A stretch of DNA of 64,000 nt from the IMG/VR virus record IMGVR_UViG_3300006750_000002, positions 126,909 through 190,908 of that record; one strand, written 5' to 3'. The translations under genes were made by a program, and so were the position numbers. Shown here piece by piece: positions 30,636-49,045 of this stretch. The stretch's first letter is position 1. Every line of letters begins with the position of its first letter. Origin of the DNA: a virus. The notes beneath the pieces are model-generated. The model saw only the letters and a program-made list of their open reading frames with translations, ran no database searches and was not told the origin of the DNA.

Positions 30636-32075
30636 ATGAATTTACGAGACTCACTTCAGACACAAGACACGGTAACCGAAAAGGGGATGACAACTAACTC
30701 ATCTACTTTAAATCACTGTGTAGACCTATTTTTTCAGATAGGTGCGATGAGAGGGATGGACAAGAAAAGACTTGTTTCTAAATTCTCAAAGGCATATAAC
30801 GAAGACGCTCTAATGTCCATGAGAATTTTATTCTGGGCAAGAGACGTAAGAGGTGGTGCTGGTGAAAGACAAATTTTTAGAGATTTACTAGATTGGTTAT
30901 GTGAAAACCACAGTGATGTACTAAACAAAAATGTTCACTTAATTAGTGAATATGGAAGGTGGGATGATATTTTGACACTTGTTGGTACTACAAACTGTTG
31001 GTTGGAACCATTAGCTTTAATCAAAACCGCTTTGGAAAACAAAGATGGGTTATGTGCAAAGTGGATGCCAAGAAAAGGTGTGAAAGCAAATACGATTAGA
31101 AAGTACATGAAAATGACACCTAAAGAATATCGTAAGATGGTAGTGGGGCTAACTAATGTGGTGGAAACTAGTATGTGTGCTAAGGAATGGGAGAATATTG
31201 ATTATTCTAAATTACCATCCTTGGCATCGTCTAGGTACCAAAGAGCATTCCATAAGAATGATGGTGAAAGGTATGAGGAGTATGTAGAGTCTCTTAAAAA
31301 GGGAACTACTAAGATTAACAGTGGAGCAGTTTACCCTTACGACATCACTAAATCTGTTAAGTTCGGTGACGTGGAAGTTGCTAGTGAACAGTGGAAAGTT
31401 TTACCTAATTACATGGAAGGTTCTGAAGAAAGAATTCTCCCAGTGGTAGATGTTTCAGGTTCGATGGGTTGTCCCGTGGGAAATAACCCTAACCTTACTT
31501 GTTTGGATGTCGCAATCTCATTAGGTTTATACATTTCGGAAAGAAACTTAGGACCCTTCCAAGATACGTTTGTAACGTTCTCGGCGAGACCGAAACTTCA
31601 AGTACTTAATGGTAACCTAAGGGATAGAATAGTGCAATTGTCACAAGCGGATTGGGGCATGACCACTAACCTAGAAGCTACCTTTCAACTGATTCTAGGT
31701 CAAGCTGTTAAACACCAAGTTTCACAAGATGAAATGCCTACCAAAGTATTGATTCTCTCAGATATGGAATTTGATGAAGCTACAGCTAAGTCATGGAGAA
31801 CTTACGATAAAGTACCTCAGTGGAATCCAACCGCACAACAAATGATTAAAGGAATGTATGAAGAAGCTGGATACGAAATGCCAGATATCGTTTACTGGAA
31901 CTTAAATGCCAGAAATGATAATTTCCCAACTTCAGTTAATGAAATGGGAACAGCGTTAGTGTCTGGTTTCTCTCCTTCAATCATGAAAAGTATTTTAACA
32001 TGTGAGGAGTTTACTCCTTACAAAATAATGATGGAGACTATCGACTCTGGTCGATACGAACCAATCAGGGTCTGA
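30636..32075 (+). CDS. DUF2828 / TROVE-like protein with C-terminal vWA domain
   Basis: RDVRGGAGER, YGRWDD, LCAKWMPR, VDVSGSM (MIDAS), TFS, ILSDMEFD, IVYWNL, LVSGFSPS. Confidence 0.8.
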   Translation: MNLRDSLQTQDTVTEKGMTTNSSTLNHCVDLFFQIGAMRGMDKKRLVSKFSKAYNEDALMSMRILFWARDVRGGAGERQIFRDLLDWLCENHSDVLNKNVHLISEYGRWDDILTLVGTTNCWLEPLALIKTALENKDGLCAKWMPRKGVKANTIRKYMKMTPKEYRKMVVGLTNVVETSMCAKEWENIDYSKLPSLASSRYQRAFHKNDGERYEEYVESLKKGTTKINSGAVYPYDITKSVKFGDVEVASEQWKVLPNYMEGSEERILPVVDVSGSMGCPVGNNPNLTCLDVAISLGLYISERNLGPFQDTFVTFSARPKLQVLNGNLRDRIVQLSQADWGMTTNLEATFQLILGQAVKHQVSQDEMPTKVLILSDMEFDEATAKSWRTYDKVPQWNPTAQQMIKGMYEEAGYEMPDIVYWNLNARNDNFPTSVNEMGTALVSGFSPSIMKSILTCEEFTPYKIMMETIDSGRYEPIRV

Positions 32076-32237
32076 TGGGTAGACCAAAGAATCTCTTCGG
32101 CAAAATTTAACTATAAATCAAAACCAGAGAGAGAGGTGGAAGTTACTCCCCACCTTGTTGAATAACAAAAAAAGGGGTATTTAGTCTCAGGAGTCCTAAG
32201 TAAAAAAAGAGTCCAAACATGATTCTGACTACCCAGA
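32076..32237 (+). ncRNA. candidate structured RNA 1 (multi-stem, ~160 nt)
   Basis: TGGGTAG/CTACCCA, AGAATC/GATTCT and AGGTGG/CCACCT pairings; TCGGCAA after the 5' stem. Confidence 0.4.
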
Positions 32238-32275
32238 AGATTTGACAACTATCGTGACATGTTCACGTTTTTATA

Positions 32276-32334
32276 GAAAGGAAGGTTACAGCAATCTTTA
32301 ATTGTAACCAAATCAAACAACGACCCCCTTCCTG
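32276..32334 (+). ncRNA. candidate structured RNA 2
   Basis: AGGAAGG/CCTTCCT and GGTTACA/TGTAACC stems; ACAGCAA; similar to 43547-43609. Confidence 0.45.
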
Positions 32335-32342
32335 AATTTATT

Positions 32343-32371
32343 AAAACCCCAGTGACGACTGGGGTTTTTTT
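32343..32371 (+). terminator. intrinsic terminator
   Basis: AAAACCCCAGT-GACG-ACTGGGGTTTTTTT. Confidence 0.88.
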
Positions 32372-32372
32372 A

Positions 32373-32404
32373 TTTGCATATATAAAGTATTTTCCCTATA
32401 TTTG
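32373..32404 (+). promoter_or_regulatory. Bacteroidota sigma-70-type promoter
   Basis: TTTG (32373-76), 20 nt, TATATTTG (32397-404). Confidence 0.75.
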
Positions 32405-32424
32405 TATTAATAAAATTAGAAATT

Positions 32425-33165
32425 ATGCCAAAGATATTTGAAGTAGGGGGTTGTGTTAGAGATGAGATACTAGGTGTCCACACAAATGACATTGATTTCA
32501 CTTTTGTACTAGATGATATTAATCAGACAGTAGATGAAGGTTGGGAACAAATGTTGGGCCACTTAAAATCCACAGGATTTAAAATATTTTTGGAGACAAA
32601 AGATTGTTTTACTGTAAGAGCCAAATTCCCTAAAGGACATAAACACGAAGGTCTAGTTGCAGATTTTGTAATGGCAAGAAAAGAAGTGGGCGTGATTCCT
32701 GGTACTAGAAAACCTGTTCTTAAGTTGGGCACCCTAGAGGATGATTTGACTCGAAGAGATTTTACACTAAACGCTTTAGCCAAAGATTTAGATGGTAACA
32801 TCATCGATTTATTTGATGGGCAACTTCATTTGATTTTAAATTTGTTGATTACTCCTTTGGACCCAGTTACCACCTTTTTAGACGACCCTCTTCGTATGAT
32901 TCGCGCACTTAGATTTCACATTACCAGAGGTTTTCAAATCCATGAAACTGTATGGGAAGCAATTTTCACTCCAGGCCTTATAGATAAGTTGGAAGAAGTG
33001 GTTTCACAAGAACGAATCCAAGGAGAAGTTATGAAAATGATGAAACACGACACAGTAAAAACTTTACGATTGTTTTCTAAGATTGATAAAGCAGAACCTA
33101 GATTATTAGAAATTATGTTTGGTGGTGACATGTGGTTACTACCAACAAACAAAAAACAAAGATGA
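32425..33165 (+). CDS. class II tRNA nucleotidyltransferase (CCA-adding/poly(A) polymerase family), minimal form
   Basis: VGGCVRD, DIDF, DLTRRDFTLNALA, DDPLRMIRALRF, SQERI; no HD domain. Confidence 0.88.
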   Translation: MPKIFEVGGCVRDEILGVHTNDIDFTFVLDDINQTVDEGWEQMLGHLKSTGFKIFLETKDCFTVRAKFPKGHKHEGLVADFVMARKEVGVIPGTRKPVLKLGTLEDDLTRRDFTLNALAKDLDGNIIDLFDGQLHLILNLLITPLDPVTTFLDDPLRMIRALRFHITRGFQIHETVWEAIFTPGLIDKLEEVVSQERIQGEVMKMMKHDTVKTLRLFSKIDKAEPRLLEIMFGGDMWLLPTNKKQR

Positions 33166-35323: not shown

Positions 35324-35367
35324 GTAAGAGACTTTTCTTAACCATTATTATTCCCTATATTTATATC

Positions 35368-35757: not shown

Positions 35758-36438
35758 ATGGAAAACAATATAGGTAAAGATTTTAGTTTATACGCTAGAA
35801 GTATGAAAAATAACATAAGTTCTACCGCGTTATGGGACTATGAAAATAGTATGACACCATACATTTTAGAAGAAAGGGAAATGAGAGCAACACAAATGGA
35901 CATTTTTTCTCGTCTGATGATGGAAAGATTAATATGGGTAGCAGGACCAATTGTGGATGTTACAGGACAAATCTTACAAGCTCAGTTAATGTATTTAGAT
36001 ACGGTGAATGCTGATGACATTAGGATACACATAGATTCACCAGGTGGTTCTGTAAAAGCAGGGTTAGGAGTTGTAGATGTGATGGATTATGTCAGTTGTG
36101 ATATCAGGACCGTAAATACTGGGATGGCAGCGTCCATGGGTTCAGTACTTCTTGCTTGTGGTACGAAAGGTAAACGTAACTCTTTAAAGTATAGTAAAAC
36201 CATGTTACACCAGTCTAGTGGTGGAGCTGTGGGAAATATCCAAGACGCACGTATCACTATGGATGAATGGGAAAAAACTAATAAAATCCTATTTAAAATA
36301 CTAGGTAAATCTTGTGGTAAAACAGCAAAACAAGTGGAAAAGGATGCACAAAGAGATTTGTGGTTAGATTCCCAAGAAGCACAAGACTATGGAATAATTG
36401 ATGAAATAATACAAAACTCAAAAGCATTTAAAAAATGA
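35758..36438 (+). CDS. clpP: ATP-dependent Clp protease proteolytic subunit
   Basis: DIFSRL, IDSPGGSV, GMAASMG (Ser), MLHQ (His), RDLW (Asp), YGIID. Confidence 0.95.
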   Translation: MENNIGKDFSLYARSMKNNISSTALWDYENSMTPYILEEREMRATQMDIFSRLMMERLIWVAGPIVDVTGQILQAQLMYLDTVNADDIRIHIDSPGGSVKAGLGVVDVMDYVSCDIRTVNTGMAASMGSVLLACGTKGKRNSLKYSKTMLHQSSGGAVGNIQDARITMDEWEKTNKILFKILGKSCGKTAKQVEKDAQRDLWLDSQEAQDYGIIDEIIQNSKAFKK

Positions 36439-37034
36439 AAAAAGAACCAACTTGGGGAGGGAAAGAAAAGGATTTAGAGTCTTCCAGTGAAAGTGACAAT
36501 CAAATTACAAGGGTAGATAACCATATCTATTTTTATTCTGAAGTGGAACGTCCAAAAATGTTAGAACTTAATAAGAAAATTAATGAATTAGATATTAATT
36601 TACAAACCATAAGTTTAAAATTAGGTACAGAACCACCAAAGATGTACTTACATATTAATTCGTATGGGGGAAGTATATTTGCGGGATTATCTACTCTAGA
36701 TACCATAAGAAATACTAAATGTGATGTGGTTACAATTATAGAAGGGTGTGCGGCAAGTGCAGGAACAATGATAAGTGTGGTGGGTAAAGAAAGACACATG
36801 CATAAACACGCTTACATGTTAATACACCAACTAAGTGCTGGGACCTGGGGAAAATATAACGACCTAGTTGATGATATGGAAAATAACACCAGACTTATGA
36901 AAATGATAAAGAAACTATATGCTGAGTATAGTCAGGTCCCTAAAGAAGAATTAGATGAAATTCTTAAACATGATTTATGGTGGGATGCGGAAAAATGCTT
37001 AGAGTATGGTTTGGTAGATAAAATTTTAGATTAA
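36435..37034 (+). CDS. second, divergent ClpP-family protease
   Basis: INSYGGS, GCAASAG, LIHQ, HDLWWDA, YGLVD; triad appears intact. Confidence 0.85.
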   Translation: MKKEPTWGGKEKDLESSSESDNQITRVDNHIYFYSEVERPKMLELNKKINELDINLQTISLKLGTEPPKMYLHINSYGGSIFAGLSTLDTIRNTKCDVVTIIEGCAASAGTMISVVGKERHMHKHAYMLIHQLSAGTWGKYNDLVDDMENNTRLMKMIKKLYAEYSQVPKEELDEILKHDLWWDAEKCLEYGLVDKILD

Positions 37035-37044
37035 ACATTAAAAT

Positions 37045-37491
37045 ATGATAGTAGAGAAGTATGTGAAATTATTAGATAATATTGCAGAAAAATTTAACGA
37101 TAAAGATAAGATTAAATCTTTTTTCAATACTTACAAATGGAAGATATTGTTATTTATTTTTCTAATGAGAGGGCTGGGGGTGATGTATGAAGTTTATACC
37201 ATTGGGACCTGTGTTAATTGTGGTAACCTAACCGAAGACCAAATGAGGGATATTGTTAAGAACAGTGAAACCGTGTCAGAATTTACTAACCAATTAAAAT
37301 TCGTCCCACATACCGACTTAATCACCTATTTTAAAGATTTATGGTTACCACTATGTGCGAATTGGGCAGCTATGTTTTTAAGTTTATCTATACTGTATGT
37401 GGTGTGGAAGGTACTCTCTACGGTACTTCTAAAGGCATACCTAAGTGTCGTAAAAAATACGACATCAAAACAAAAAAATAAAAAAATATGA
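37045..37491 (+). CDS. membrane protein with CxxC
   Basis: two TM helices flanking CVNC. Confidence 0.6.
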
Positions 37492-37904
37492 GAATAATAA
37501 CTGATTATGGAGAAATAATAATTTCATTATTTGGTGAGACGCCTGACACTAAAAAAAACTTTGAAACTTTAATCGATAATGGGTTCTACAGGGATTTAAC
37601 TTTTCATAGGGTTATCCCAGGATTTGTAGTACAAGGAGGGTGCCCAAACGGTGATGGTAGCGGTGGCCCTGGGCACACCATCAAATGTGAAGTAAATAGT
37701 GACAAACAATATCACGACAGGGGTATTTTATCTATGGCACATAGAGGTAAAGACACTGGGGGTTCACAATTCTTCATCTGTCTAAATAGACATACGACAC
37801 AACACCTAGATGGTTTACACACTTGTTTTGGTGAAGTAATAAAAGGAATGGGTATTATTGACAAAATTAAACAAGGTGATAAATTTAGTATAGTAAAAAA
37901 TTAG
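37488..37904 (+). CDS. cyclophilin-type peptidyl-prolyl isomerase
   Basis: [37 protein letters not shown]. Confidence 0.93.
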
Positions 37905-37907
37905 AAT

Positions 37908-38387
37908 ATGGAAAAAGTAGAAATTATGATGTATACAATGCCCACATGTGGATATTGTACAAAAATGAAAGGAGAGTTAGAAAAATCTAATATTACCTAT
38001 ACTGAAAAAAATTATAAAGATAATAAAGAGGAGTGGGAACATATTAAATCACTTACCAGGAGTGCAGTATTTCCTACATTCGTAGTGGGTAAAGAATACC
38101 TAATCCCAAATAGAGACTTTAAAACCCCTCAGGAAGCCATCCAGTCTCTCCAATACTACCAAAATAGTATGCATAGAGACCAAACTATTGAAGATTTAGT
38201 TGAACTATTAAAAAATAATATGTATATGACCAAGATGGCTCTAGATAAAATAGAGGCCATTAATGTTAAACTGACTAAACAAGAGAAGGTAGAGGCACAA
38301 AATGCAATACAAGAAGATAGGAAAGAACATCTAGAACAACAAAAGAAAATAATGGATAAAATACGACTTAAAAAAACTATAAGTTAA
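37908..38387 (+). CDS. glutaredoxin-like protein with coiled-coil tail
   Basis: CGYC...VFPTF. Confidence 0.75.
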   Translation: MEKVEIMMYTMPTCGYCTKMKGELEKSNITYTEKNYKDNKEEWEHIKSLTRSAVFPTFVVGKEYLIPNRDFKTPQEAIQSLQYYQNSMHRDQTIEDLVELLKNNMYMTKMALDKIEAINVKLTKQEKVEAQNAIQEDRKEHLEQQKKIMDKIRLKKTIS

Positions 38388-38778: not shown

Positions 38779-38794
38779 AGGATATTTATGATTA

Positions 38795-41700
38795 ATGAGA
38801 CTAAATGCCCACCATAGTGGAGAGAACATAGACCCTGAATTACAATGGGCTATAGATAATTCGTACCGTACCAACCCAGAGTTGAGAGACGATATTTTAG
38901 ACTCACTAGAAGATGAAGAATTAGAATCTTACATCGTTAATGTAGAACATGGAGATGTAAAACTTAAAGCTCCCCCCGAACAAATATTACAAAAACTTAC
39001 CGGATTATCCGATTTAGGTAATATTGTTACAACCATGAGAGGTGGTAATGGTGTAGCCGTGTTAACCGATAAAGATTTGGTAATTAAAATCACTGGTGAT
39101 AAAGCTGAATACATTACATCAAAAGAGTTAGAAAATATTAACAGTGAGTATGTGGTTAAAGTACATAGTAGTAAAGTTATTGACCCTGACGACCAAAGTA
39201 TATATACACCAGATAGTAAACCTGCTTATTTAATAATTATGGACAAAGTGGACGCTCCCACCATACAACAAGAACGTGACTGGTTTGACTGTTGTTGTAC
39301 TGAAGATAAACCCATTTATATCGATTTTACAGACCCCGATGGAGATGCAGTAGTTCATCCACCTGTAGATGATTATGATAAATGTAATAAGATTTATGAC
39401 GATATTATGAATATCAGAAAAGAGATAGAAAGAGTGGGAAGAAGATGGGTGGATATAGGAATAGATAATGTAGGCATTAAAGATGGGAAATATGTCCTAA
39501 TAGATTTAGGAACCAACGACCCATTACCCTTAAATGAAAATACTAATACTCTTACAAAAAAATTAAAGGAGTCCATTACCCACCCCACCATCCCCTTTAC
39601 AAGTAAAGTAAAAAGAATTCTGCAGGTCGCTTTAGATATGGGATTCAAAAAAGGTGAAACACTTAATCTTATAGGAATCGATTGGAAAGAGAATAAAGGG
39701 GCGGCAGAATTTCGTAAAAACCTATCTAAATTTTTTGATATAAATCTTAGTTTGTCACACGACTTGAGTTTTATATTTGAATATAATATAAAGATAGGTA
39801 ATGAAAAGGTGTCCACTTGGGTTCTACCGACAATTTATGAAAGTAATGTGTATGTTTATGGTGATTACGATACGCACTACGAATATACCGACTGTGATGA
39901 AACGGGGATTTCGTTAGGTCCTTGGGCTGTGGGTGAGGAATGTGAATGTGAAAGGGGTACGATTTATGATAGTGAGGACGATGAGTATCGGGCTTGTACT
40001 GAGAGTGAACTAGACACCATACACTCTGATGAGGAATGTGAGTGTGAATATTGGGCCAACGACGATGTTGTGGTATATTACTACCCTATATATGAAACAC
40101 AAATATATAGTACTGTTGACCCAGAGACTGCGGGATGTGACCACACTGAACATACCCATTTAAGTGATTATATTCATTGTTTGGAATCAACTGGTGATGT
40201 TGTTAGGGTAATGTCAGAAATGCATATATCCGATACGGCCCATGAACTAGAGGATGATTTTGATTATGGGTTGGGCCAGGAAATCGCTGACGATTCGGGA
40301 CGACCCTGGTCCAGTGTGGAGTTCGAGGAACATAACCCGTCAGTGGAAATGAGAAGGCTAAACGACTTATATCCAGACAGTACACCTACCTCAGAAAAAT
40401 TAAATGAACAACAAATGACCATGTTCCCAACAGGACACTGGAGGTTTCCTGTGGGAAAGGAGGGTGAGGCTGTGAAAGAGATACAAGAACAGTTACCAGA
40501 ACACATAGTGAAGTTAATATTCCAACAATGGGATAAGGAAGAACCACTTCAAATGAATGATAAAGATTTTAAATTATTTGGCATCCCTCATAAAGTTAGA
40601 TTATTGATAGCATTAATAGTAAGGTACTTACAAAACACCACTAGACCTATTCCAGTTCGTAGAGTGTGGGACTGTGAGGATTTAAAATATTTATTTACTA
40701 AAGAAGATAGACATATAGTTCAAAAGTACCTATGCGAAGAGGATTTTGATTATGAAATGATGTATGGGTATGATGAGTGGGATGATGGAATGCCAGACCA
40801 ACTGGATGAGAAAAGTTGGGGTTTGGTCACCAAGATATTAGGTGTAGATGAATCTATTGCGGAAAATTTATTAAAAGATAACCCCCAAACGCAAGCGGAA
40901 GAAGAATTATTGGCCAATAAAGAAGATGATGTAGATACAATAAGATACCTATTGAAGTGGTCCAATGAAAGAGGTGCAGGTGACGCAACCTATACCGCGA
41001 TAAAAGATTCTATGAAAGATGAAATAGAGGACCACTTTGAACAGGAGGGTAAATTTGAATATAATAGTAAAGGAGAGTTAGTCTACATAATTGAAGCAGA
41101 TTTAAAGGACTATGTCCAAGACCCTAACGCTTGGGACAATACGGATAGGTTTCAATCACATGAAGACTTTTCGGGACTAGACCTGGAAGATATACTATAC
41201 GATATTAATTTGGAGAGTGACTCCACCCTTAACCCCTATACTTCCTCCCTTCATACTATACCTAATGTAATATTTGATATATTCATGGTTAGCGACTTCT
41301 CTACCCAGTGGTATTCTGATAAACATGAATTAACTGTAGACACTAAATTCTTTGATAGTTACTGGTACCCAGATTATGATATTAATCAAGATTTTATGGA
41401 TAGAATGGGGGAGGCATATTATGACCAACTTAAAGGAACCATGAATGAAGGAAAAAGTTACGGTGCTGAGATAGAACTTGACCATAATAACGCTTACATT
41501 GAAGCTGGACCAATCACCAAGACAGAAATTCAGATTCTTAATATGATTATGGGTAAATTTTCACAACAGGAACTTACTGACCTTACAACTATTGATTATC
41601 ATAATGTGGGTTTAGACTTGGAGATAAAGTGGAGTAACTTTATTAAGTTAATTGGTGAAAAGACAGGTAACTCAGAAGATTTTGCTAAAAGTACTCGATG

Positions 41701-42823
41701 GGCAAAATGGGTGTTGGACAATAGGGATAGAGCAGAGGGTGCTAATGAAGATGGCGAAGTTGTTATTGATTTTAACAATATAGATATTTTAACTAGAAAT
41801 TACCCATCAGTTTATGAAGTAGAAGGAGATGAATCCATATGGCAAAGAGAATATAGACGAGCGGCAGTAGAAATACCAGCATTTGATGATGAGGATGCTA
41901 GAGAAAGAGCTAATGCAAGTTTCTGGGAGTATGACCCTGAGTTTGAAACTTATGATTATGGGAATAGTGATACTGATGAGTTTAATATTGAAGATATTAC
42001 TCATTATCAAACCCTTAAAGAACAAATTATCAATACTGAAAATTTACCAGAAGAAGAGATAAGTCCTGACTTAGTTGAAGGTGATAAAGTTTTTGTTTGG
42101 GATGTAGAACCAGATTTCGCTGTCTATCACAACCCAGCACCTCCAGGAACTACACCAAATACAATACCCTCCGCATTTATTGGGACAGTAACAGAAGTAA
42201 TACCAGATGATGAGATTGATAGACATGCCTACCGAGGAGGTATAAAATATATGGTAGATAGTATGTCAGGTTTAATAGGTCTATACCCAGGAAGAAGTGA
42301 TGGTTTGGGAGAGATGGGGAGGTGGGGGTTCCATAGAGATAAGTGGGTTAAGTTAAACAAGGAAAACCTACAAGAGATTAAAAAAATTACCAACACAAAA
42401 AACATTGAAAGACAAAAAGATTTCACCTTAAAAAGGTCTTTTATGGAATCAATCAATAATTTAACGGAAAAAGAGATTACCACTATCAAGGAAAGTGTGG
42501 TGGTAAGTAGAGTTACATTATTTGATTATTTAGACGAACTCAGTAAAAGTAGTTTAGTAAATGAAAATGAGTTACCTGAATTATTAATCGGAGGCAGAAA
42601 CTGGACAGATAAGTTTACCGTTTCTAAGTCCATGGACCTAGACGACCTTAAAGAAAATTCTAACAAAGTAAGGGATATCGTATTCAATAATGCAAAACTA
42701 AAACTAAGTAAAAAATTAGAAAACCCTTCTTTTATTGAAACTAAAAGAGAGTTGTTAGAGACCGCTAAAAGTATTGTCACGCTTTGGGAAGAGTCAAGAA
42801 GAAACAAAAATAGGGTTAGTTGA
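38795..42823 (+). CDS. 1342-aa modular polyprotein-like protein with N-terminal protein-kinase-like module
   Basis: GGNGVAV...VIKIT...LIIMDKV...DIGIDNV...LIDLG kinase-like motifs; further modules separated by LNE/LKE/MNE/LQE. Confidence 0.75.
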   Translation: MRLNAHHSGENIDPELQWAIDNSYRTNPELRDDILDSLEDEELESYIVNVEHGDVKLKAPPEQILQKLTGLSDLGNIVTTMRGGNGVAVLTDKDLVIKITGDKAEYITSKELENINSEYVVKVHSSKVIDPDDQSIYTPDSKPAYLIIMDKVDAPTIQQERDWFDCCCTEDKPIYIDFTDPDGDAVVHPPVDDYDKCNKIYDDIMNIRKEIERVGRRWVDIGIDNVGIKDGKYVLIDLGTNDPLPLNENTNTLTKKLKESITHPTIPFTSKVKRILQVALDMGFKKGETLNLIGIDWKENKGAAEFRKNLSKFFDINLSLSHDLSFIFEYNIKIGNEKVSTWVLPTIYESNVYVYGDYDTHYEYTDCDETGISLGPWAVGEECECERGTIYDSEDDEYRACTESELDTIHSDEECECEYWANDDVVVYYYPIYETQIYSTVDPETAGCDHTEHTHLSDYIHCLESTGDVVRVMSEMHISDTAHELEDDFDYGLGQEIADDSGRPWSSVEFEEHNPSVEMRRLNDLYPDSTPTSEKLNEQQMTMFPTGHWRFPVGKEGEAVKEIQEQLPEHIVKLIFQQWDKEEPLQMNDKDFKLFGIPHKVRLLIALIVRYLQNTTRPIPVRRVWDCEDLKYLFTKEDRHIVQKYLCEEDFDYEMMYGYDEWDDGMPDQLDEKSWGLVTKILGVDESIAENLLKDNPQTQAEEELLANKEDDVDTIRYLLKWSNERGAGDATYTAIKDSMKDEIEDHFEQEGKFEYNSKGELVYIIEADLKDYVQDPNAWDNTDRFQSHEDFSGLDLEDILYDINLESDSTLNPYTSSLHTIPNVIFDIFMVSDFSTQWYSDKHELTVDTKFFDSYWYPDYDINQDFMDRMGEAYYDQLKGTMNEGKSYGAEIELDHNNAYIEAGPITKTEIQILNMIMGKFSQQELTDLTTIDYHNVGLDLEIKWSNFIKLIGEKTGNSEDFAKSTRWAKWVLDNRDRAEGANEDGEVVIDFNNIDILTRNYPSVYEVEGDESIWQREYRRAAVEIPAFDDEDARERANASFWEYDPEFETYDYGNSDTDEFNIEDITHYQTLKEQIINTENLPEEEISPDLVEGDKVFVWDVEPDFAVYHNPAPPGTTPNTIPSAFIGTVTEVIPDDEIDRHAYRGGIKYMVDSMSGLIGLYPGRSDGLGEMGRWGFHRDKWVKLNKENLQEIKKITNTKNIERQKDFTLKRSFMESINNLTEKEITTIKESVVVSRVTLFDYLDELSKSSLVNENELPELLIGGRNWTDKFTVSKSMDLDDLKENSNKVRDIVFNNAKLKLSKKLENPSFIETKRELLETAKSIVTLWEESRRNKNRVS

Positions 42824-42868: not shown

Positions 42869-42899
42869 TTGGTAATTAAAAAAAACCTCCTTATATTTG
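42869..42899 (+). promoter_or_regulatory. Bacteroidota sigma-70-type promoter
   Basis: TTG (42869-71), 20 nt, TATATTTG (42892-99); implies real HD-gene start is ATG 42920. Confidence 0.65.
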
Positions 42900-42919
42900 T
42901 ACTTATAAAACAAATAGTA

Positions 42920-43453
42920 ATGAAGTATTTTGAAGAAGTAGAAGAATTGGCGAGAGAGTTACACGGTGACCAGAAAAGAAAATATACTGGAGAACCTTAC
43001 GTTAATCACACAGTAACAGTCGCTAATATAGTTAAAAAGCACGGTGGTGACGAACCTATGGTGTATGCTGCCATTCTTCACGATGTGTTAGAAGATACAC
43101 CCACCACCGAAAACGAACTGATGGACTTACTTATGGACATATTTGATAATTATATGATTAGTAGAGACGTGGTAATGTTGGTTAAAGAACTTACCGATGT
43201 TTATGTTACAGAAAATTTTCCAAACACTAACAGAAAAGGTCGGAAAGAAATGGAGGCAATGAGATTGGGTAAGGTGTCACCCAGGGTACAGACAATCAAA
43301 TACGCAGACCTTCTAGACAATAGTAGAGATATAGTTTATAATGACCCTAAGTTCGCTAAAGTATACCTAAAAGAGAAAGAACAAATATTAAAATATATGA
43401 CTAAGGGAAATAAAGAACTTTATAATAAAAATCTTAAACTATTGTCTTTATAG
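42920..43453 (+). CDS. HD-domain hydrolase, RelA/SpoT (small alarmone hydrolase, Mesh1-like)
   Basis: HGDQKRKYTGEPYVNH, AAILHDVLEDT, ELTD, IKYADLLDN. Confidence 0.85.
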   Translation: MKYFEEVEELARELHGDQKRKYTGEPYVNHTVTVANIVKKHGGDEPMVYAAILHDVLEDTPTTENELMDLLMDIFDNYMISRDVVMLVKELTDVYVTENFPNTNRKGRKEMEAMRLGKVSPRVQTIKYADLLDNSRDIVYNDPKFAKVYLKEKEQILKYMTKGNKELYNKNLKLLSL

Positions 43454-43971: not shown

Positions 43972-44006
43972 AAATAAATTCCATTAATTTGAAGTATTTA
44001 TAGTTA

Positions 44007-45254
44007 ATGGAAAGAGGAAAAACTATAAAAGAACAAACCCCTAACTTAACCCCTGAGGAGATTGTAGGTAATTTCCTAGATTTTTGTCAGGATAATTTAG
44101 GATATCGAACCCCTGCGTCGGTAGAGTTGGTAACGGATAGGGATAAGTTAGTTACTTTGGCTTCTTATAATCTAAACGACAGTAGTGTAAGAGTTTACTC
44201 TAAAAACAGAGCACTCGCAGACATACTTAGAAGTATCGCACACGAACTAGTTCATCACAAACAATTAGAAGATGGTAGAATTGATGTTAACAATCCACCC
44301 CAGGATGTTGGTGGTGAGATTGAAGACGAGGCAAATGCTGTAGCGGGTCAACTAGTAAAAGCTTTTGCTTATACTGATGTAAACATCTACGAAAATTGGA
44401 GTAAATCTAGGGCTGTGGGACGAGGACAAACCTTTTGTCAAGATAAAGAGGAAAATATAACCATTACAGATACCGTCAAAGGTTATGGGCAGAATCTAAT
44501 ACATGGGACCACTAAAACCAAAGAAAATAATTTTAAACCAAACTTAAGAGAAGGGTCATTTAGTATCCCTGCTCAGAGTAAAGATTTGTTGGGTTTAGTA
44601 AATGAAGAGACCGACACAAACAAATTAAAATTAATACAAGAAGTAATTCACAATCAATTAAGGTATCTTAATAAAAATCAAGAAGTCTTAAATGAAGAGT
44701 CAATAGTGAATTTCAAGAAGATAGGTGATGGAACTGTAACACCTATAGATGTTAAAATAATGAATCACCTTATTAGGGATTATAGTAAAGATGAAATAAA
44801 AGATATGGTAGGCATTAGTGCTTATAGTTTGGATTTAACGCATATCTTTAAATTATATGGAGGACCTAGACTGTGGAGTTTCTATGGAAAACGGTTAGTA
44901 CAGTTTATTTATGACAGTAATTATAATGTTACGGAAAACAATGTTGGTGACCCACTACCACCGTTAAATACATACTCTATAACTCGAAGTTCAGTTGCAG
45001 TACAAAGAGTATCACAAGACTATAGAGTTGAAGCTCAGGACACCAACTTCAACGGGTTTATGTGTGGTGTTCAGGAAGACTTCTGGGGGTATGACCCAAC
45101 CTTTATCAGTCAGGAAGTACTAGATGATGACTTCGTAGGTGATGAAGAATGGGTATCAGTAAGTATGAATGGTAAACGAATTTGGGGCGGAACTGAAAGT
45201 GAAATAGAAGGAAAAGAAGATTTCAACCCTTATAATAGGGAATGTAATTATTAA
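44007..45254 (+). CDS. modular protein: zincin-like HExxH module + repeated unknown module
   Basis: HELVHH...EDEANA; C-terminal module after LNEE is homologous to modules in 38795 and 46229 ORFs; TATTTATA 43995-44002. Confidence 0.72.
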   Translation: MERGKTIKEQTPNLTPEEIVGNFLDFCQDNLGYRTPASVELVTDRDKLVTLASYNLNDSSVRVYSKNRALADILRSIAHELVHHKQLEDGRIDVNNPPQDVGGEIEDEANAVAGQLVKAFAYTDVNIYENWSKSRAVGRGQTFCQDKEENITITDTVKGYGQNLIHGTTKTKENNFKPNLREGSFSIPAQSKDLLGLVNEETDTNKLKLIQEVIHNQLRYLNKNQEVLNEESIVNFKKIGDGTVTPIDVKIMNHLIRDYSKDEIKDMVGISAYSLDLTHIFKLYGGPRLWSFYGKRLVQFIYDSNYNVTENNVGDPLPPLNTYSITRSSVAVQRVSQDYRVEAQDTNFNGFMCGVQEDFWGYDPTFISQEVLDDDFVGDEEWVSVSMNGKRIWGGTESEIEGKEDFNPYNRECNY

Positions 45255-45266
45255 AAAAACAAAGTT

Positions 45267-46229
45267 ATGAAAATTATAATTACAGAAGAACAACTTAAAA
45301 AGATAATGGAGATTAAAACGACTTTACACGAAGTCGCTCTATCATCACCTGTACCTTATAACGGAGTTAACACGTCCATTCCTGAAGGTACATTAAAACT
45401 ATATGACGGGTTAGGTAAAGGTAGGAGAGAAAAGAGAGATGAGGTAAGGCAAATGCAACAAGACCTCATCACTCTTAATTACATATTACCGAGATTTGGA
45501 GTTGACGGTAAGTTCGGTAGAGAGACCCTCGTGTCAGTAAATGCTTTTCAAAAAGACCATGGGTTTGTAGAAAGTGAAACGGTCACCCAAGAAATGTTAA
45601 CAGCACTCAAAAATCCTAAAAACTTAAATAAAAATCCTGAAATCAATGACCCCAAACAAGTTAAAAAACACGCTAAACAAGGGAACATAAAACCTTTTAG
45701 TCCTGCAGTTGTTGACGCAATTAGGAAAGCAAGTGGTGAAAATGGTGTAAGTGAAGAACTAATGTTTACGATTGCTAATATTGAATCTGGGGGGGACCCC
45801 ACCGCAAGAAACAAACGGAGTGGTGCTTCAGGATTGTATCAGATAATGCCTAAATATTTTAATGACTATGGTGTTAATGGCACAACAGTATGGGACCCTT
45901 ATGAAAATGCGGATGCAGCAGCTAAAGGACTTAAAAGAAAAATTGAAAGGTTAACGAAGGTAATAAAATCCTCACCCACTAATCCCCAAATTTATATGGC
46001 ACACAATCAAGGTAGTGGGGGATTTGAAATTATTTATAATGCTTGTAAAAACTTTGGTGGTTTAGATGGTAAAGAATCTTTACAACAATCTTCTAACAGT
46101 CTTGGGTATGGAAGAAGAACTGGGAGTAAAATATATAGAAATATGAGAGGTAATAAAGGAAACCACCCATGTCAATTTATGGACAGTTGGGGTGACATAT
46201 ATGACAGTAAAAAGACTTCTTACGCATAA
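45267..46229 (+). CDS. peptidoglycan-binding domain + lytic transglycosylase (SLT/GH23)
   Basis: VRQMQQDL...VDGKFGRETLVSVNAFQ; IANIESGG...ASGLYQIM...DPYEN...YMAHNQG. Confidence 0.88.
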   Translation: MKIIITEEQLKKIMEIKTTLHEVALSSPVPYNGVNTSIPEGTLKLYDGLGKGRREKRDEVRQMQQDLITLNYILPRFGVDGKFGRETLVSVNAFQKDHGFVESETVTQEMLTALKNPKNLNKNPEINDPKQVKKHAKQGNIKPFSPAVVDAIRKASGENGVSEELMFTIANIESGGDPTARNKRSGASGLYQIMPKYFNDYGVNGTTVWDPYENADAAAKGLKRKIERLTKVIKSSPTNPQIYMAHNQGSGGFEIIYNACKNFGGLDGKESLQQSSNSLGYGRRTGSKIYRNMRGNKGNHPCQFMDSWGDIYDSKKTSYA

Positions 46230-49045
46230 TGTATACACTAAAAGAAATAAGAAAGATTTTAAATATTCAAGAACAAGACCCTAATGAAGATTCTTGGTCT
46301 GATGGAGATGCGATGGAAGACAATAAAGGAGACGGTAAATCTTTTACACCTTTTGAATTAGCTATCCTTAAATTAATCCACCAAAACTTAACCAAAGAGA
46401 TGATGGAGGATGTCCTAGTTAGCCATGCTTATCCTAATGATGTTGGTAGGAAATGGCAAAACATTGCAAAATTAGTTGGTTTAAGACATGACATTCAAAA
46501 ACGACATTCAATGGAAGATATCGCATATGATAAAAGATATGTGAAGTGGGCATTAGATAATTGGACTGAAGACGGCGATTATGCTTCGATAGAAAAACCA
46601 ATAAAAGTTCCACCCAAAAGCTATGAAGTTGACCGAGAAGAATCAGGTACTCAAGTAGAGTATAAAGATGGTTCAACCACTGTAATTGCTTATGATGAAG
46701 ACATGGCAAGTGATACCGCAGATAATGAGTTTTGGGACTGGGGCGGTGAAATGGAAACTACCGATTATGGTGATTATGAAACTTACGATAGTTCTATTAC
46801 CAAAGTCATACCTACAGAAGTATTAAGTGAAGAGAAACAAAAAGAATTTAATGAGTTAGTTAAGTTGTGTGAATTAGGTGAAAAGTACACACCAAAAATT
46901 GTGGGAGGAGTAACTAAAGAAACTTTAGTGGGATTCCTCAAAGAGAATATAAATGATATGGTTTATATTGATGAACCTAAAGAAAAACATGTCAGAAGAA
47001 TGGCTAGTGAGTTAGGTCCACTAGAAGGATTCCCAATAGAAAGGTTTAAAAACATGCCTCCACCAGAAAATGAATCTACACAAACAGAAGAAGAAATAGA
47101 TTATCTTGATAGTATTCCTGTAGAAAAAAGTTTTATTGAAAATGCGGATAATATAAACCAACAATTTAAAAAGTTTCTAGAAACAAAAGAATTAGAATTT
47201 CCAGAAGAAGAGTTAAAAGATGTGATGAAAGGAGTTAAGTCTATCATACTACAATTAAAGTATCATTATAATAGACCAAGACCTTATCAAGTCGCAAAAG
47301 CAAAAAACTTACAATTAGATTCAGAACATTTAAAATCAGCTAGCACACCATCGTACCCATCCGGACATGCAACCCAAGGTACCTTCATTGGAAGATATCT
47401 GTCGGACCTATATCCTGAGTATGAAAAAGAATTAAGACAGGCGGGGGAAGATATTTCATTCAGTAGAAATATGGCAAAAGTTCATTACCCAAGTGACTCC
47501 GAGTTTGGAAAAATATTAGGAAATGGCCTTTATGAATTTCTACACCACCAACTAGAAAGTTTAGATGAAGAAACGGATATTTTTGGACAAGGGTTGGCAA
47601 GTCCCATAGGGCCTGAAGAATTTGAGGGTAGTGATGGAGAGTGGGAAGAGCTAATTAAGAAAAATGAAACACCAGAAGAATATGATGACGGTGGGGCCGA
47701 CGCACAAATTGGATTTGTCACACCCTCTAGTGAAGTAGTTGATAACATATGTAAAGTGAAGGGTTTTTGTCAGGCACAAGGACCTATAACATTTGGGCAA
47801 CTTAGAGAGTTAGTGGAAACTGCAACTAATAAAAGAATTATCACGGATTTAAGTCGTGGTGCTTTTAAGACATTGTGGAGGATAATCCCTTTTTTCTTAC
47901 CACAAGTATTATTAGCTTCAGTGGGCGTTACCGTTACTAGAGCTATTAATAAAGTTATTACGCCCGCGTTAAAGGACACTAAAGGGTATAAGTCCTGGTG
48001 GGGGAAAGTGGTTTTAAAAGCTATGGATATTGCGGAAGGAGATTATATTCCCGATGTCGCGTTAGGTGATGACCCACTCAGTAAAATATTCTTTATTTCC
48101 GATGGACTACTCCAAATGGTCAGAGACAAGTATAAACTTAAATTTGCTAGATATGTCGCAGAAGTTGCCGCTAATGAACCTGACAATAAACCTGTACCAG
48201 AATGGTTTGTTGAAAATTTATTGAGGGATTATTTAAATCAAAAATTCTTATTAAATCCCCCATTACCTATTAAAACCAACACCAAAACAAATTTACAAGA
48301 ACCCCCATATAGTGATGATGAAGATACGAATGGTGTAGATTTATCACAAGACGACAATTCATTAAATGAAGAAAAGGATGAACCAGATTGGTCTATACGA
48401 CGGGGTAAACAACATTACGCGATGAATGCGGAGAACACACCAACCGAACCTATAACAGCGTTCAATAATTATTTAGTTAAAAATTCTCCTTTTATCATTG
48501 AAGGATTCGATTTCTATTTAAGTGCGGTTCCAGGTAACATGCCAGGAGAAGCAAGAGTAGATGTTTATGTGCCTATGATGGATGATAGTACACTAGCAGA
48601 TGAGATATGGAACACCGAGAGAAATTATATGACTAGAGAATATAGTGCCAACATGGTTTATTGGGACAATCATGACGATATAGACCATTATGAATTTACT
48701 GAACATACTGATATGTTACACAATATAGGTTATGACCAGAAATTTGGAGAATACTATTATTATGAAGATTTTCAAGAGAAGTTCCCTGAACATATAAAAC
48801 AAATATTCCACACAATTAAATACACCAATCTATTAAATGCACCTGGTAAACAATATGAACATATGTGGAGAAGTAAAAGAAATACTCTTAATAGAAAACT
48901 GGTGAGTCTCTCTAAATTATTTGGTCTAGATAGTGTAGTAATCAACAGAGACCCCCAGAGACCCTGGAAAAGACAGGTAGATTCTTATGGTAACGAAGAA
49001 ATTCGCCCAGGGAAAACCGTACCTAGAGAATGGCCTCGCTCTTAA
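46229..49045 (+). CDS. 938-aa modular protein: repeated module + PAP2/haloperoxidase-type phosphatase + two unknown modules
   Basis: KYHYNRPRP, PSYPSGHA, SRNMAKVHYPSD (PAP2 C1-C3 motifs). Confidence 0.78.
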   Translation: MYTLKEIRKILNIQEQDPNEDSWSDGDAMEDNKGDGKSFTPFELAILKLIHQNLTKEMMEDVLVSHAYPNDVGRKWQNIAKLVGLRHDIQKRHSMEDIAYDKRYVKWALDNWTEDGDYASIEKPIKVPPKSYEVDREESGTQVEYKDGSTTVIAYDEDMASDTADNEFWDWGGEMETTDYGDYETYDSSITKVIPTEVLSEEKQKEFNELVKLCELGEKYTPKIVGGVTKETLVGFLKENINDMVYIDEPKEKHVRRMASELGPLEGFPIERFKNMPPPENESTQTEEEIDYLDSIPVEKSFIENADNINQQFKKFLETKELEFPEEELKDVMKGVKSIILQLKYHYNRPRPYQVAKAKNLQLDSEHLKSASTPSYPSGHATQGTFIGRYLSDLYPEYEKELRQAGEDISFSRNMAKVHYPSDSEFGKILGNGLYEFLHHQLESLDEETDIFGQGLASPIGPEEFEGSDGEWEELIKKNETPEEYDDGGADAQIGFVTPSSEVVDNICKVKGFCQAQGPITFGQLRELVETATNKRIITDLSRGAFKTLWRIIPFFLPQVLLASVGVTVTRAINKVITPALKDTKGYKSWWGKVVLKAMDIAEGDYIPDVALGDDPLSKIFFISDGLLQMVRDKYKLKFARYVAEVAANEPDNKPVPEWFVENLLRDYLNQKFLLNPPLPIKTNTKTNLQEPPYSDDEDTNGVDLSQDDNSLNEEKDEPDWSIRRGKQHYAMNAENTPTEPITAFNNYLVKNSPFIIEGFDFYLSAVPGNMPGEARVDVYVPMMDDSTLADEIWNTERNYMTREYSANMVYWDNHDDIDHYEFTEHTDMLHNIGYDQKFGEYYYYEDFQEKFPEHIKQIFHTIKYTNLLNAPGKQYEHMWRSKRNTLNRKLVSLSKLFGLDSVVINRDPQRPWKRQVDSYGNEEIRPGKTVPREWPRS

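Follow-up and report, generated by a model that had tools for sequence, protein, structure and literature searches.

The gene at positions 38795-42823 of the window, the 64,000-nucleotide stretch of viral DNA analysed here, probably encodes a precursor, assembled from cassettes, of the internal head proteins (ejection or cargo proteins) of a giant myovirus that is uncultured and has head genes like those of T4. The window is the final 64 kb (positions 126,909 to 190,908) of the IMG/VR record IMGVR_UViG_3300006750_000002, which measures 190.9 kb and is ~60 % complete. Assignment of the record to a myovirus is based on a tail sheath (1161 amino acids) and a baseplate wedge protein; DNA replication genes are also present, as are numerous large open reading frames (ORFs) without a family match. 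The original prediction, made from the sequence alone, held that this one gene encodes several proteins released by proteolysis, among them an injected kinase that could reprogram host signalling or defence. The modules, their borders and the kinase fold were corroborated, and a prohead protease was found in a close relative; release and injection would follow by analogy with phage T4. The cassette architecture, the joints and the mobility of the modules were shown by comparison of homologues, and we infer, with good support, that the precursor is cleaved, packaged in the head and its products injected.

The ORF was confirmed as a single open frame of 1342 codons plus stop on the forward strand. 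Its product (P0001) showed no significant match to Pfam and PHROGs as a whole protein, and a tblastn search matched none of the 50,697 deposited phage genomes in INPHARED. A search of 5.8 billion proteins yielded 12 homologues of 1077-2340 amino acids, and a scan of viral contigs added a thirteenth, P0028, of 2457 amino acids. The 13 homologues are 35-79 % identical to P0001.

Module borders and exchange of cassettes

The six proposed modules were mapped onto the 13 homologues, and large insertions and deletions (indels) were listed. The gene is divided as follows, with all features on the + strand:

38795..42823 (+): whole ORF, 1342 amino acids plus stop; modular polyprotein-like gene
38795..39538 (+): module 1, residues 1-248; helical lead-in (~1-60) and putative truncated protein-kinase core (~61-248), ending with LNE 246-248
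39539..39571 (+): 11-residue peptide, residues 249-259, NTNTLTKKLKE, between LNE and LKE
39572..40408 (+): module 2, residues 260-538; Cys-rich and acidic, predicted beta-rich core 319-498, ending with LNE 536-538
40409..41449 (+): module 3, residues 539-885; large, acidic, mostly helical, ending with MNE 883-885
41450..42022 (+): module 4, residues 886-1076; ending with LKE 1074-1076
42023..42376 (+): module 5, residues 1077-1194; small and beta-rich, ending with LQE 1192-1194
42377..42820 (+): module 6, residues 1195-1342; helical tail

The tripeptides at the joints, whose coordinates in the original prediction all proved correct on translation, are:

39530-38 (+): LNE, residues 246-248
39563-71 (+): LKE, residues 257-259
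40400-08 (+): LNE, residues 536-538
41441-49 (+): MNE, residues 883-885; I/M-N/K-E in 13 of 13 homologues
42014-22 (+): LKE, residues 1074-1076; present in 13 of 13 homologues
42368-76 (+): LQE, residues 1192-1194; present in 13 of 13 homologues

Breakpoints in the homologues at residues 248, 538, 885, 1076 and 1194 support this six-module anatomy and its boundaries. A tripeptide [LIM]-[NKQS]-E stands at all five inter-module joints and was kept in 12-13 of the 13 homologues, down to 35 % overall identity; for the sites named in the original prediction conservation ranged from 8/9 to 13/13 homologues. Furthermore, all five joints were independently marked in the homologues by large indels, duplications or paralogue ends, 0-3 residues past the Glu. 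Sites of the [LIM][NKQ]E class make up ~2-3 % of positions at this tolerance of 0-3 residues, so that by our own arithmetic five independent coincidences would have a probability of ~1e-8.

The number of such motifs is unremarkable. P0001 holds 34 [LIMV]xE and 20 [LM]xE sites, and [LI]NE is enriched neither in the genome (48 observed, 39.7 expected) nor in P0001 (2 observed, 0.96 expected). Because the count is at chance level, the test was whether these sites mark real module borders, and the signal lies in their position and conservation, not in their number. The earlier statement that composition and motif changes line up thus cannot be carried by motif counts, but the placing of borders at the sites was upheld by the homologue comparison.

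Each joint has been a place of insertion, loss or duplication in one homologue or another. At the 248/259 joint, eight homologues harbour a PPK2 cassette of ~365 amino acids (Pfam, expectation value (E) 1e-73) between the equivalents of LNE and L-K/Q/N-E, and peptide 249-259 of P0001 resembles what such a cassette would leave behind as an empty slot or a scar, or else a slot yet unfilled. The kinase module is absent from five homologues (P0003, P0010, P0011, P0013 and P0014), in one of which, P0003, a second copy of module 2 takes its place. P0009 has an additional cassette of 102 amino acids (247-348) flanked by two LNE. At joint 538, a peptidoglycan-binding cassette of 248 amino acids (881-1128) is found in P0004 between LNE 881-883 and LNE 1129-1131, and the doubled module 2 of P0003 marks this joint too. 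P0012 has ~157 extra residues at joint 885, between INE 1335-37 and INE 1492-94, and 371 extra residues (1700-2070), including an HD domain, between two L/I-K-E at joint 1076. In P0028 module 4 occurs twice at joint 1076, with ~415 residues between the copies, and ~97 extra residues are located at joint 1194 between LTE 2213-15 and MTE 2311-13. P0001 has six modules and relatives have up to ~12, among them PPK2, HD, PG_binding and duplicated modules.

Whether homologous modules occur as stand-alone genes or in other orders, a question posed with the original prediction, was answered by an exhaustive HMMER search with module 1. This module was found stand-alone, N-terminal, internal and C-terminal in otherwise different large proteins. 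The stand-alone proteins measure 273 and 294 amino acids, and more distant relatives 185-240 amino acids. Eleven other architectures have [MVIL]-x-E ahead of the module and [LIM]-x-E behind it, and in P0031 a segment resembling module 4 precedes the kinase module, i.e. the order is reversed. Module 4 had been described as repeated in two other ORFs of the window. This was confirmed for ORF 46229-49045 (profile E 1.4e-27); in ORF 44007-45254 the match is only weak and partial (E 2.5e-4, 41 residues). Residues 443-691 of ORF 46229-49045, between LDE and LQE, share 72 % identity (E 3e-114) with residues 441-693 of P0012, whereas P0012 and P0001 are 27-51 % identical in modules 2-6 and 69 % in module 1. 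The much higher identity of this cassette than of modules 2-6 indicates that cassettes move between cargo genes and between phages.

The kinase module and the remaining modules

Module 1 is predicted to have a protein-kinase fold with conserved catalytic residues. All kinase motifs named in the original prediction are present in P0001 at the positions given there: GGNG 83-86, VIK 96-98 (with K98), DIGIDN 220-225 and DLG 237-239. In an alignment of 20 relatives G83, K98, D220, N225, G227 and D237 are nearly invariant, with at least 90 % conservation of G83, K98, D220, N225 and D237; in protein kinases this set serves ATP binding and phosphotransfer. An AlphaFold (AF2) model of the module reached a predicted local distance difference test score (pLDDT) of 85.8 and a predicted template modelling score of 0.79, and the top 50 matches of this model in a Foldseek search of the Protein Data Bank (PDB) were all protein kinases (E 1e-4 to 6e-4). 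Superposition by VIA-align on PKR, TTK, Pim1 and GAK gave Z 9-11.5 and a root mean square deviation of 3.0-4.1 Å over 129-154 residues. When a profile of the kinase module was compared with PDB sequences, 11 of the 13 sub-threshold matches were protein kinases, with a best E of 0.011.

The kinase is a truncated one. The VIA-align superpositions cover model residues ~61-248, from the N-lobe through the DFG motif only, and a complete C-lobe (activation segment and helices F-I), the part that binds the substrate, is absent from module 1, the kinase alignments stopping at DFG. Both module 1 and its stand-alone relatives of 185-240 amino acids end 5-11 residues past the DFG equivalent, module 1 itself 9-11 residues past DLG. 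The earlier description as a protein-kinase-like module therefore holds for the fold and the catalytic residues but not for the activation segment and the C-terminal subdomain, which are missing. Kinases of polyvalent proteins have likewise lost the whole C-terminal subdomain while keeping the active-site residues, and stand-alone versions of them exist (PMC5512222). Module 1, however, shows no significant match to the profile of the family Kinase-PolyVal (PF18762): none was found for P0001 at E <= 1 and none for module 1 at E <= 0.1. One of the 20 module 1 relatives matches PF18762 (E 0.018), and others gave weak matches to Pkinase and ABC1. Markers of Kinase-PolyVal are a Glu before strand 2, a Gln in the last N-lobe strand and an insert between the catalytic His and Asp; the catalytic loop in the window reads W-V-D, without His. 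From the fold and the profile results we call module 1 kinase-fold and polyvalent-kinase-like, and at most a possible divergent member of Kinase-PolyVal. As a guess, it might, in the early phase of infection, phosphorylate a target in the host or the phage.

The remaining 1094 residues (249-1342) were modelled together with a poor mean pLDDT of 54. Confident cores were obtained for residues ~319-498, 669-718, 899-1008, 1079-1180 and 1195-1340. No predicted domain was seen to span a site, and all joints fall in low-pLDDT stretches between the cores. A Foldseek search of the PDB with this model gave no match at E <= 0.001. In a wide VIA-align search, module 5 matched small SH3/Tudor/KOW-like barrels (Z 4.4-4.8) and module 6 helical proteins (Z ~5), both below the meaningful level; module 5 is possibly, on this weak resemblance, an SH3/Tudor/KOW-like barrel. 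A feature search of the ESM Atlas gave no usable match for module 4. Module 2 has six invariant cysteines (C367, C383, C385, C401, C415 and C417). Module 6 is C-terminal in every homologue and contains further conserved sites (LTE 1223, VNE 1255 and LKE 1285); a guess would be that it anchors the precursor in the head core and is then degraded.

Proposed processing in the prohead and other explanations

The lineage appears to use a prohead protease of the T4 gp21 type, as is suggested by the genome of a relative, G002 (246 kb, 77 % complete). The tail sheath of G002 is 78 % identical to that of the window's record, and the local gene order ClpP-ClpP-x-cyclophilin-glutaredoxin-polyprotein is the same as in the window. 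G002 encodes a Peptidase_S77 protein (the T4 gp21 family; 82 bits with a cut-off of 27). The adjoining gene codes for an acidic scaffold-like protein with dense [LI]NE sites and a His/Gly/Asp-rich low-complexity middle. A gp23-family capsid protein (215 bits, 598 amino acids) has an N-terminal segment ending in HLINE|ATTAD, which we take to be the position of the gp23 cut in T4. The protease, scaffold and capsid loci are:

L015, 1363-2073 (-): Peptidase_S77 gene of G002
L015, 1-1259 (-): scaffold/capsid locus of G002
L017, 2123-3325 (-): scaffold/capsid locus of G002

The G002 capsid protein is larger than T4 gp23. The S77 protease family has thousands of metagenome members, several of which are labelled as Tara (marine) sequences and come from contigs of 230-317 kb.

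It is established for T4 (PMC9026906) that gp21 cleaves after L/I-X-E, that T4 internal proteins have a 10-residue capsid targeting sequence processed through residues 8 and 10, and that a 7-residue propeptide is removed from Alt. Leaders of this kind are found in the family studied here. Nine of the 14 full-length proteins (P0001, the 12 homologues and P0028) have [ILV]xE at residues 8-10, with a start MRxxxxx[ILV]xE or similar, and the short kinase-module proteins P0029 and P0030 also begin in this way. Most homologues thus keep a T4-like N-terminal leader site, whereas P0001 has lost it.

The following course of events would account for these findings. The precursor, made from a gene preceded by the motif TATTTAT[ATG], would be produced late and would be incorporated into the core of the prohead, as in T4. 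A gp21-type serine protease would then act on linkers of the form [L/I/M]-[N/K/Q]-E where these are exposed, cutting after the Glu at residues 248, 259, 538, 885, 1076 and 1194, and the helical tail may also be cut internally. Released in this way would be the kinase, in its truncated form, together with four or five other proteins without a known fold, and these would leave the head with the DNA at infection, by analogy with Alt and the internal proteins of T4. Because each module would have its own cut site, modules could be added, lost, duplicated or moved without disturbing the others. Put forward tentatively, and with less confidence than the precursor itself, is the wider idea that this lineage, a widespread one, may have come to use the tripeptide of the prohead protease as a universal delimiter of cassettes. 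An enzyme of any kind, once flanked by [LIM]-x-E, could then be inserted into one of a few cargo polyprotein genes; conserved parts of the precursor would carry it into the prohead, and it would be cut free and injected. Such cargo would mainly concern the chemistry of phosphate and nucleotides (C-lobe-less kinase, PPK2, HD and PAP2) and might act in the first seconds of infection, before phage gene expression, e.g. on the energy charge of the host, on polyphosphate or on defence signals based on nucleotides.

Several observations weigh against processing in the prohead. The L/I/M-x-E motif is short and occurs at chance frequency, and ~25 additional [LIMV]xE sites in P0001 would need protection by folding. 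P0001 has no N-terminal [IL]xE leader site; its residues 8-10 are SGE, for which reason its leader is probably not removed. LQE 1192-1194 was placed at the start of a long predicted helix, and since the model of residues 249-1342 is poor, the location of the sites between domains is weak evidence. Modules 2, 3, 4 and 6 were without any fold or function in Pfam, PHROGs, Foldseek, ESM Atlas and VIA-align. The C-lobe-less kinase might lack activity, or its substrate might be a small molecule. A T4-type protease (Peptidase_S77) was not found in the window's own record, an absence that is uninformative at ~60 % completeness, nor in a second relative, G001, which is 61 % complete; the protease link rests on G002 and not on the window's record.

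Some of these points would suit an intact giant multidomain virion protein of the polyvalent type, delivered whole, with modules working while tethered and the L-x-E tripeptides as linker features or minor trimming sites. Indeed, transfer without processing is known for some polyvalent proteins, e.g. the N4 virion RNA polymerase and ArdC (PMC5512222). The brevity and chance frequency of the motif and the missing N-terminal site of P0001 favour such a protein, as does the result that no embedded peptidase was recognised by Pfam or PHROGs in P0001, P0004, P0009, P0012 and P0028, where four modules are without a recognised fold. However, a mere linker needs no invariant Glu and hydrophobic P3 residue at every joint, across 35-79 % identity and unrelated architectures, and in a close relative with a gp21-type protease this tripeptide also terminates the capsid propeptide and recurs throughout the scaffold. 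Delivery as an intact protein is thus considered unlikely. Cytoplasmic processing of a non-virion multi-enzyme precursor, by the ClpP pair encoded upstream or by a host protease, is less probable still. The gene order from ClpP to polyprotein is kept in four relatives, and ClpP-fold enzymes are the prohead proteases of some phages, as judged from PHROG names, but the scaffold and capsid genes of the lineage are accompanied by a gene for a dedicated gp21-type protease, and the genes next to the polyprotein encode short leaders in the style of T4 and modules for cell-wall degradation of a kind typical of virion proteins that are ejected. Moreover, we know of no ClpP-type enzyme with specificity for sites after L-x-E. 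The least probable alternative, that the tripeptides are DNA-level scars of cassette-shuffling recombination without a protease role, agrees with the real exchange of cassettes between genes and phages and with the repetition of the motif at both ends of indels, but conservation is at the amino acid level, with L/I/M, N/K/Q/S and the flanks varying, and by our own reasoning homologous recombination could not be guided by as few as nine degenerate bases. All three alternatives fit the conservation at the amino acid level and the head genes of the relative less well than cleavage in the prohead does.

The components of the proposed system are already known: capsid targeting and gp21 processing in T4, processed ejection proteins of the phiKZ type, and polyvalent proteins with C-lobe-less kinases. 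The T4 internal proteins and Alt resemble the present case in the [IL]-x-E leaders of most homologues (at residues 8-10 or similar) and of neighbouring genes, in the tripeptide specificity, in the gp21-family protease, scaffold and gp23-like capsid of a close relative, and in enzyme cargo presumed to be ejected with the DNA. They differ in that T4 cargo, as described in PMC9026906, consists of single proteins losing only terminal propeptides, whereas here at least six unrelated modules share one ORF, a site stands at every joint, modules are exchanged as cassettes, P0001 is without an N-terminal site, and the system is known from sequence alone.

In polyvalent proteins, a single polypeptide combines 2-15 domains unrelated to each other, in a mosaic that varies from one relative to the next (PMC5512222). 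With them the present proteins share the many unrelated enzyme domains per phage polypeptide, the mosaicism and the predicted packaging and injection (Iyer et al. 2017, PMC5512222). Unlike in polyvalent proteins, beyond the kinase and the peptidoglycan-targeting modules no MPTase-type peptidase, ART, GNAT or similar domain was found here (Pfam, E <= 1), and release is proposed to occur via a prohead protease at L-x-E joints and not via an embedded peptidase. The lineage also differs: the phage is an uncultured giant related to T4, and its protease family is abundantly represented in marine (Tara) data.

The inner-body and ejection proteins of phiKZ, 201phi2-1 and SPN3US likewise belong to giant myoviruses and are cut after the Glu of a three-residue motif, some of them multiply, by the gp21-related gp175/gp245 (PMC9026906). 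There, however, the motif is S/A/G-X-E and not L/I/M-X-E, the multiple cuts are described in that source as redundant removal of propeptides and not as release of a string of enzymes, and no sequence similarity was found by INPHARED matching. The polyproteins that RNA viruses of eukaryotes encode are alike in that one ORF gives several mature products with short protease recognition sites in between. They are unlike the present case of a double-stranded DNA tailed phage, in which the protease is encoded elsewhere and would act inside the prohead, and the products would be accessory cargo, not the replication or structural core.

In the literature searched, no tailed-phage polyprotein with prohead-protease sites at its joints was described, nor PPK2 as virion cargo. 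If correct, this would to our knowledge and in that literature be the first true polyprotein of a tailed phage yielding accessory enzymes delivered with the DNA, and it would join T4 capsid targeting and gp21 processing with the polyvalent proteins, so far described separately. It would also provide a simple sequence rule, modules bounded by [LIM]-x-E being cargo, for the injected proteome of uncultured giant phages from metagenomes. Unexplored activities in early infection would be indicated, i.e. a minimal kinase, PPK2, HD, PAP2 and four modules without a known fold, and a natural plug-in format would be at hand for loading foreign proteins into T4-type heads.

Neighbouring genes

The features surrounding the polyprotein gene in the window are:

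35758-36438 and 36435-37034 (+): two tandem ClpP-family protease genes, upstream of the polyprotein
38783..38790 (+): TATTTATG motif, 4 nucleotides ahead of the polyprotein start codon
44007..45254 (+): modular gene, 415 amino acids; leader MERGKTIKE, weak partial module 4 match after VLNE 227-230
45267..46229 (+): gene of 320 amino acids; leader MKIIITE, lytic transglycosylase and peptidoglycan-binding segment, 39 % identical to the P0004 cassette
46229..49045 (+): modular gene, 938 amino acids; module 4 paralogue (35-201), PAP2 phosphatase (342-434) and cassette (443-691)

The motif TATTTAT[ATG] occurs 128 times in the genome, and 49 ORFs of at least 50 amino acids have it 0-27 nucleotides upstream of their ATG, as at 38783-38790, 43995-44002, 35358-35365 and 46 other places. 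Often it lies only 2-5 nucleotides from the start codon, too close for a Shine-Dalgarno sequence to fit in between. It is the reverse complement of the T4 late promoter TATAAATA; this promoter is absent from the coding strand upstream of the polyprotein gene, where its reverse complement TATTTATA/G is found instead. TATTTAT[ATG] may be a late-gene signal or late promoter giving near-leaderless mRNAs.

Directly upstream, the block 35758-38387 comprises both ClpP genes, a small ORF, a gene for a cyclophilin-type prolyl isomerase and a glutaredoxin/thioredoxin-like gene. It is conserved in the relatives' loci L003, L012 and L014 and may be a set of folding or processing helpers for Cys-rich cargo. 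Three neighbouring cargo genes encode leaders of 6-9 residues that end in I/L-x-E (MERGKTIKE, MKIIITE and MYTLKE). The modules of ORF 46229-49045 are bounded by IQE, LSE, LDE and LQE, its PAP2 module (Pfam E 5e-9) being located between LKE and LDE. Lytic transglycosylase, peptidoglycan-binding, M23 and PAP2 modules occur among the neighbouring genes, together with the PHROG annotation 'internal virion protein with endolysin domain'; judged by these domains, the set fits ejected proteins whose action is at the envelope and immediately beneath it.

A stand-alone HD phosphohydrolase gene (42869-43453) lies directly downstream of the polyprotein gene. Homology with the HD cassettes of P0012 and P0028 was considered for it and rejected, there being no BLAST-detectable similarity. 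Further upstream, at 30636-33165, a tRNA nucleotidyltransferase gene comes after a gene for a Ro60/TROVE-like RNA-binding protein (PHROG E 8e-153). In L003, a metagenome contig of a relative deposited at NCBI, a PAS histidine kinase and a response regulator are encoded at 601-2660, ~8 kb upstream of its polyprotein gene.

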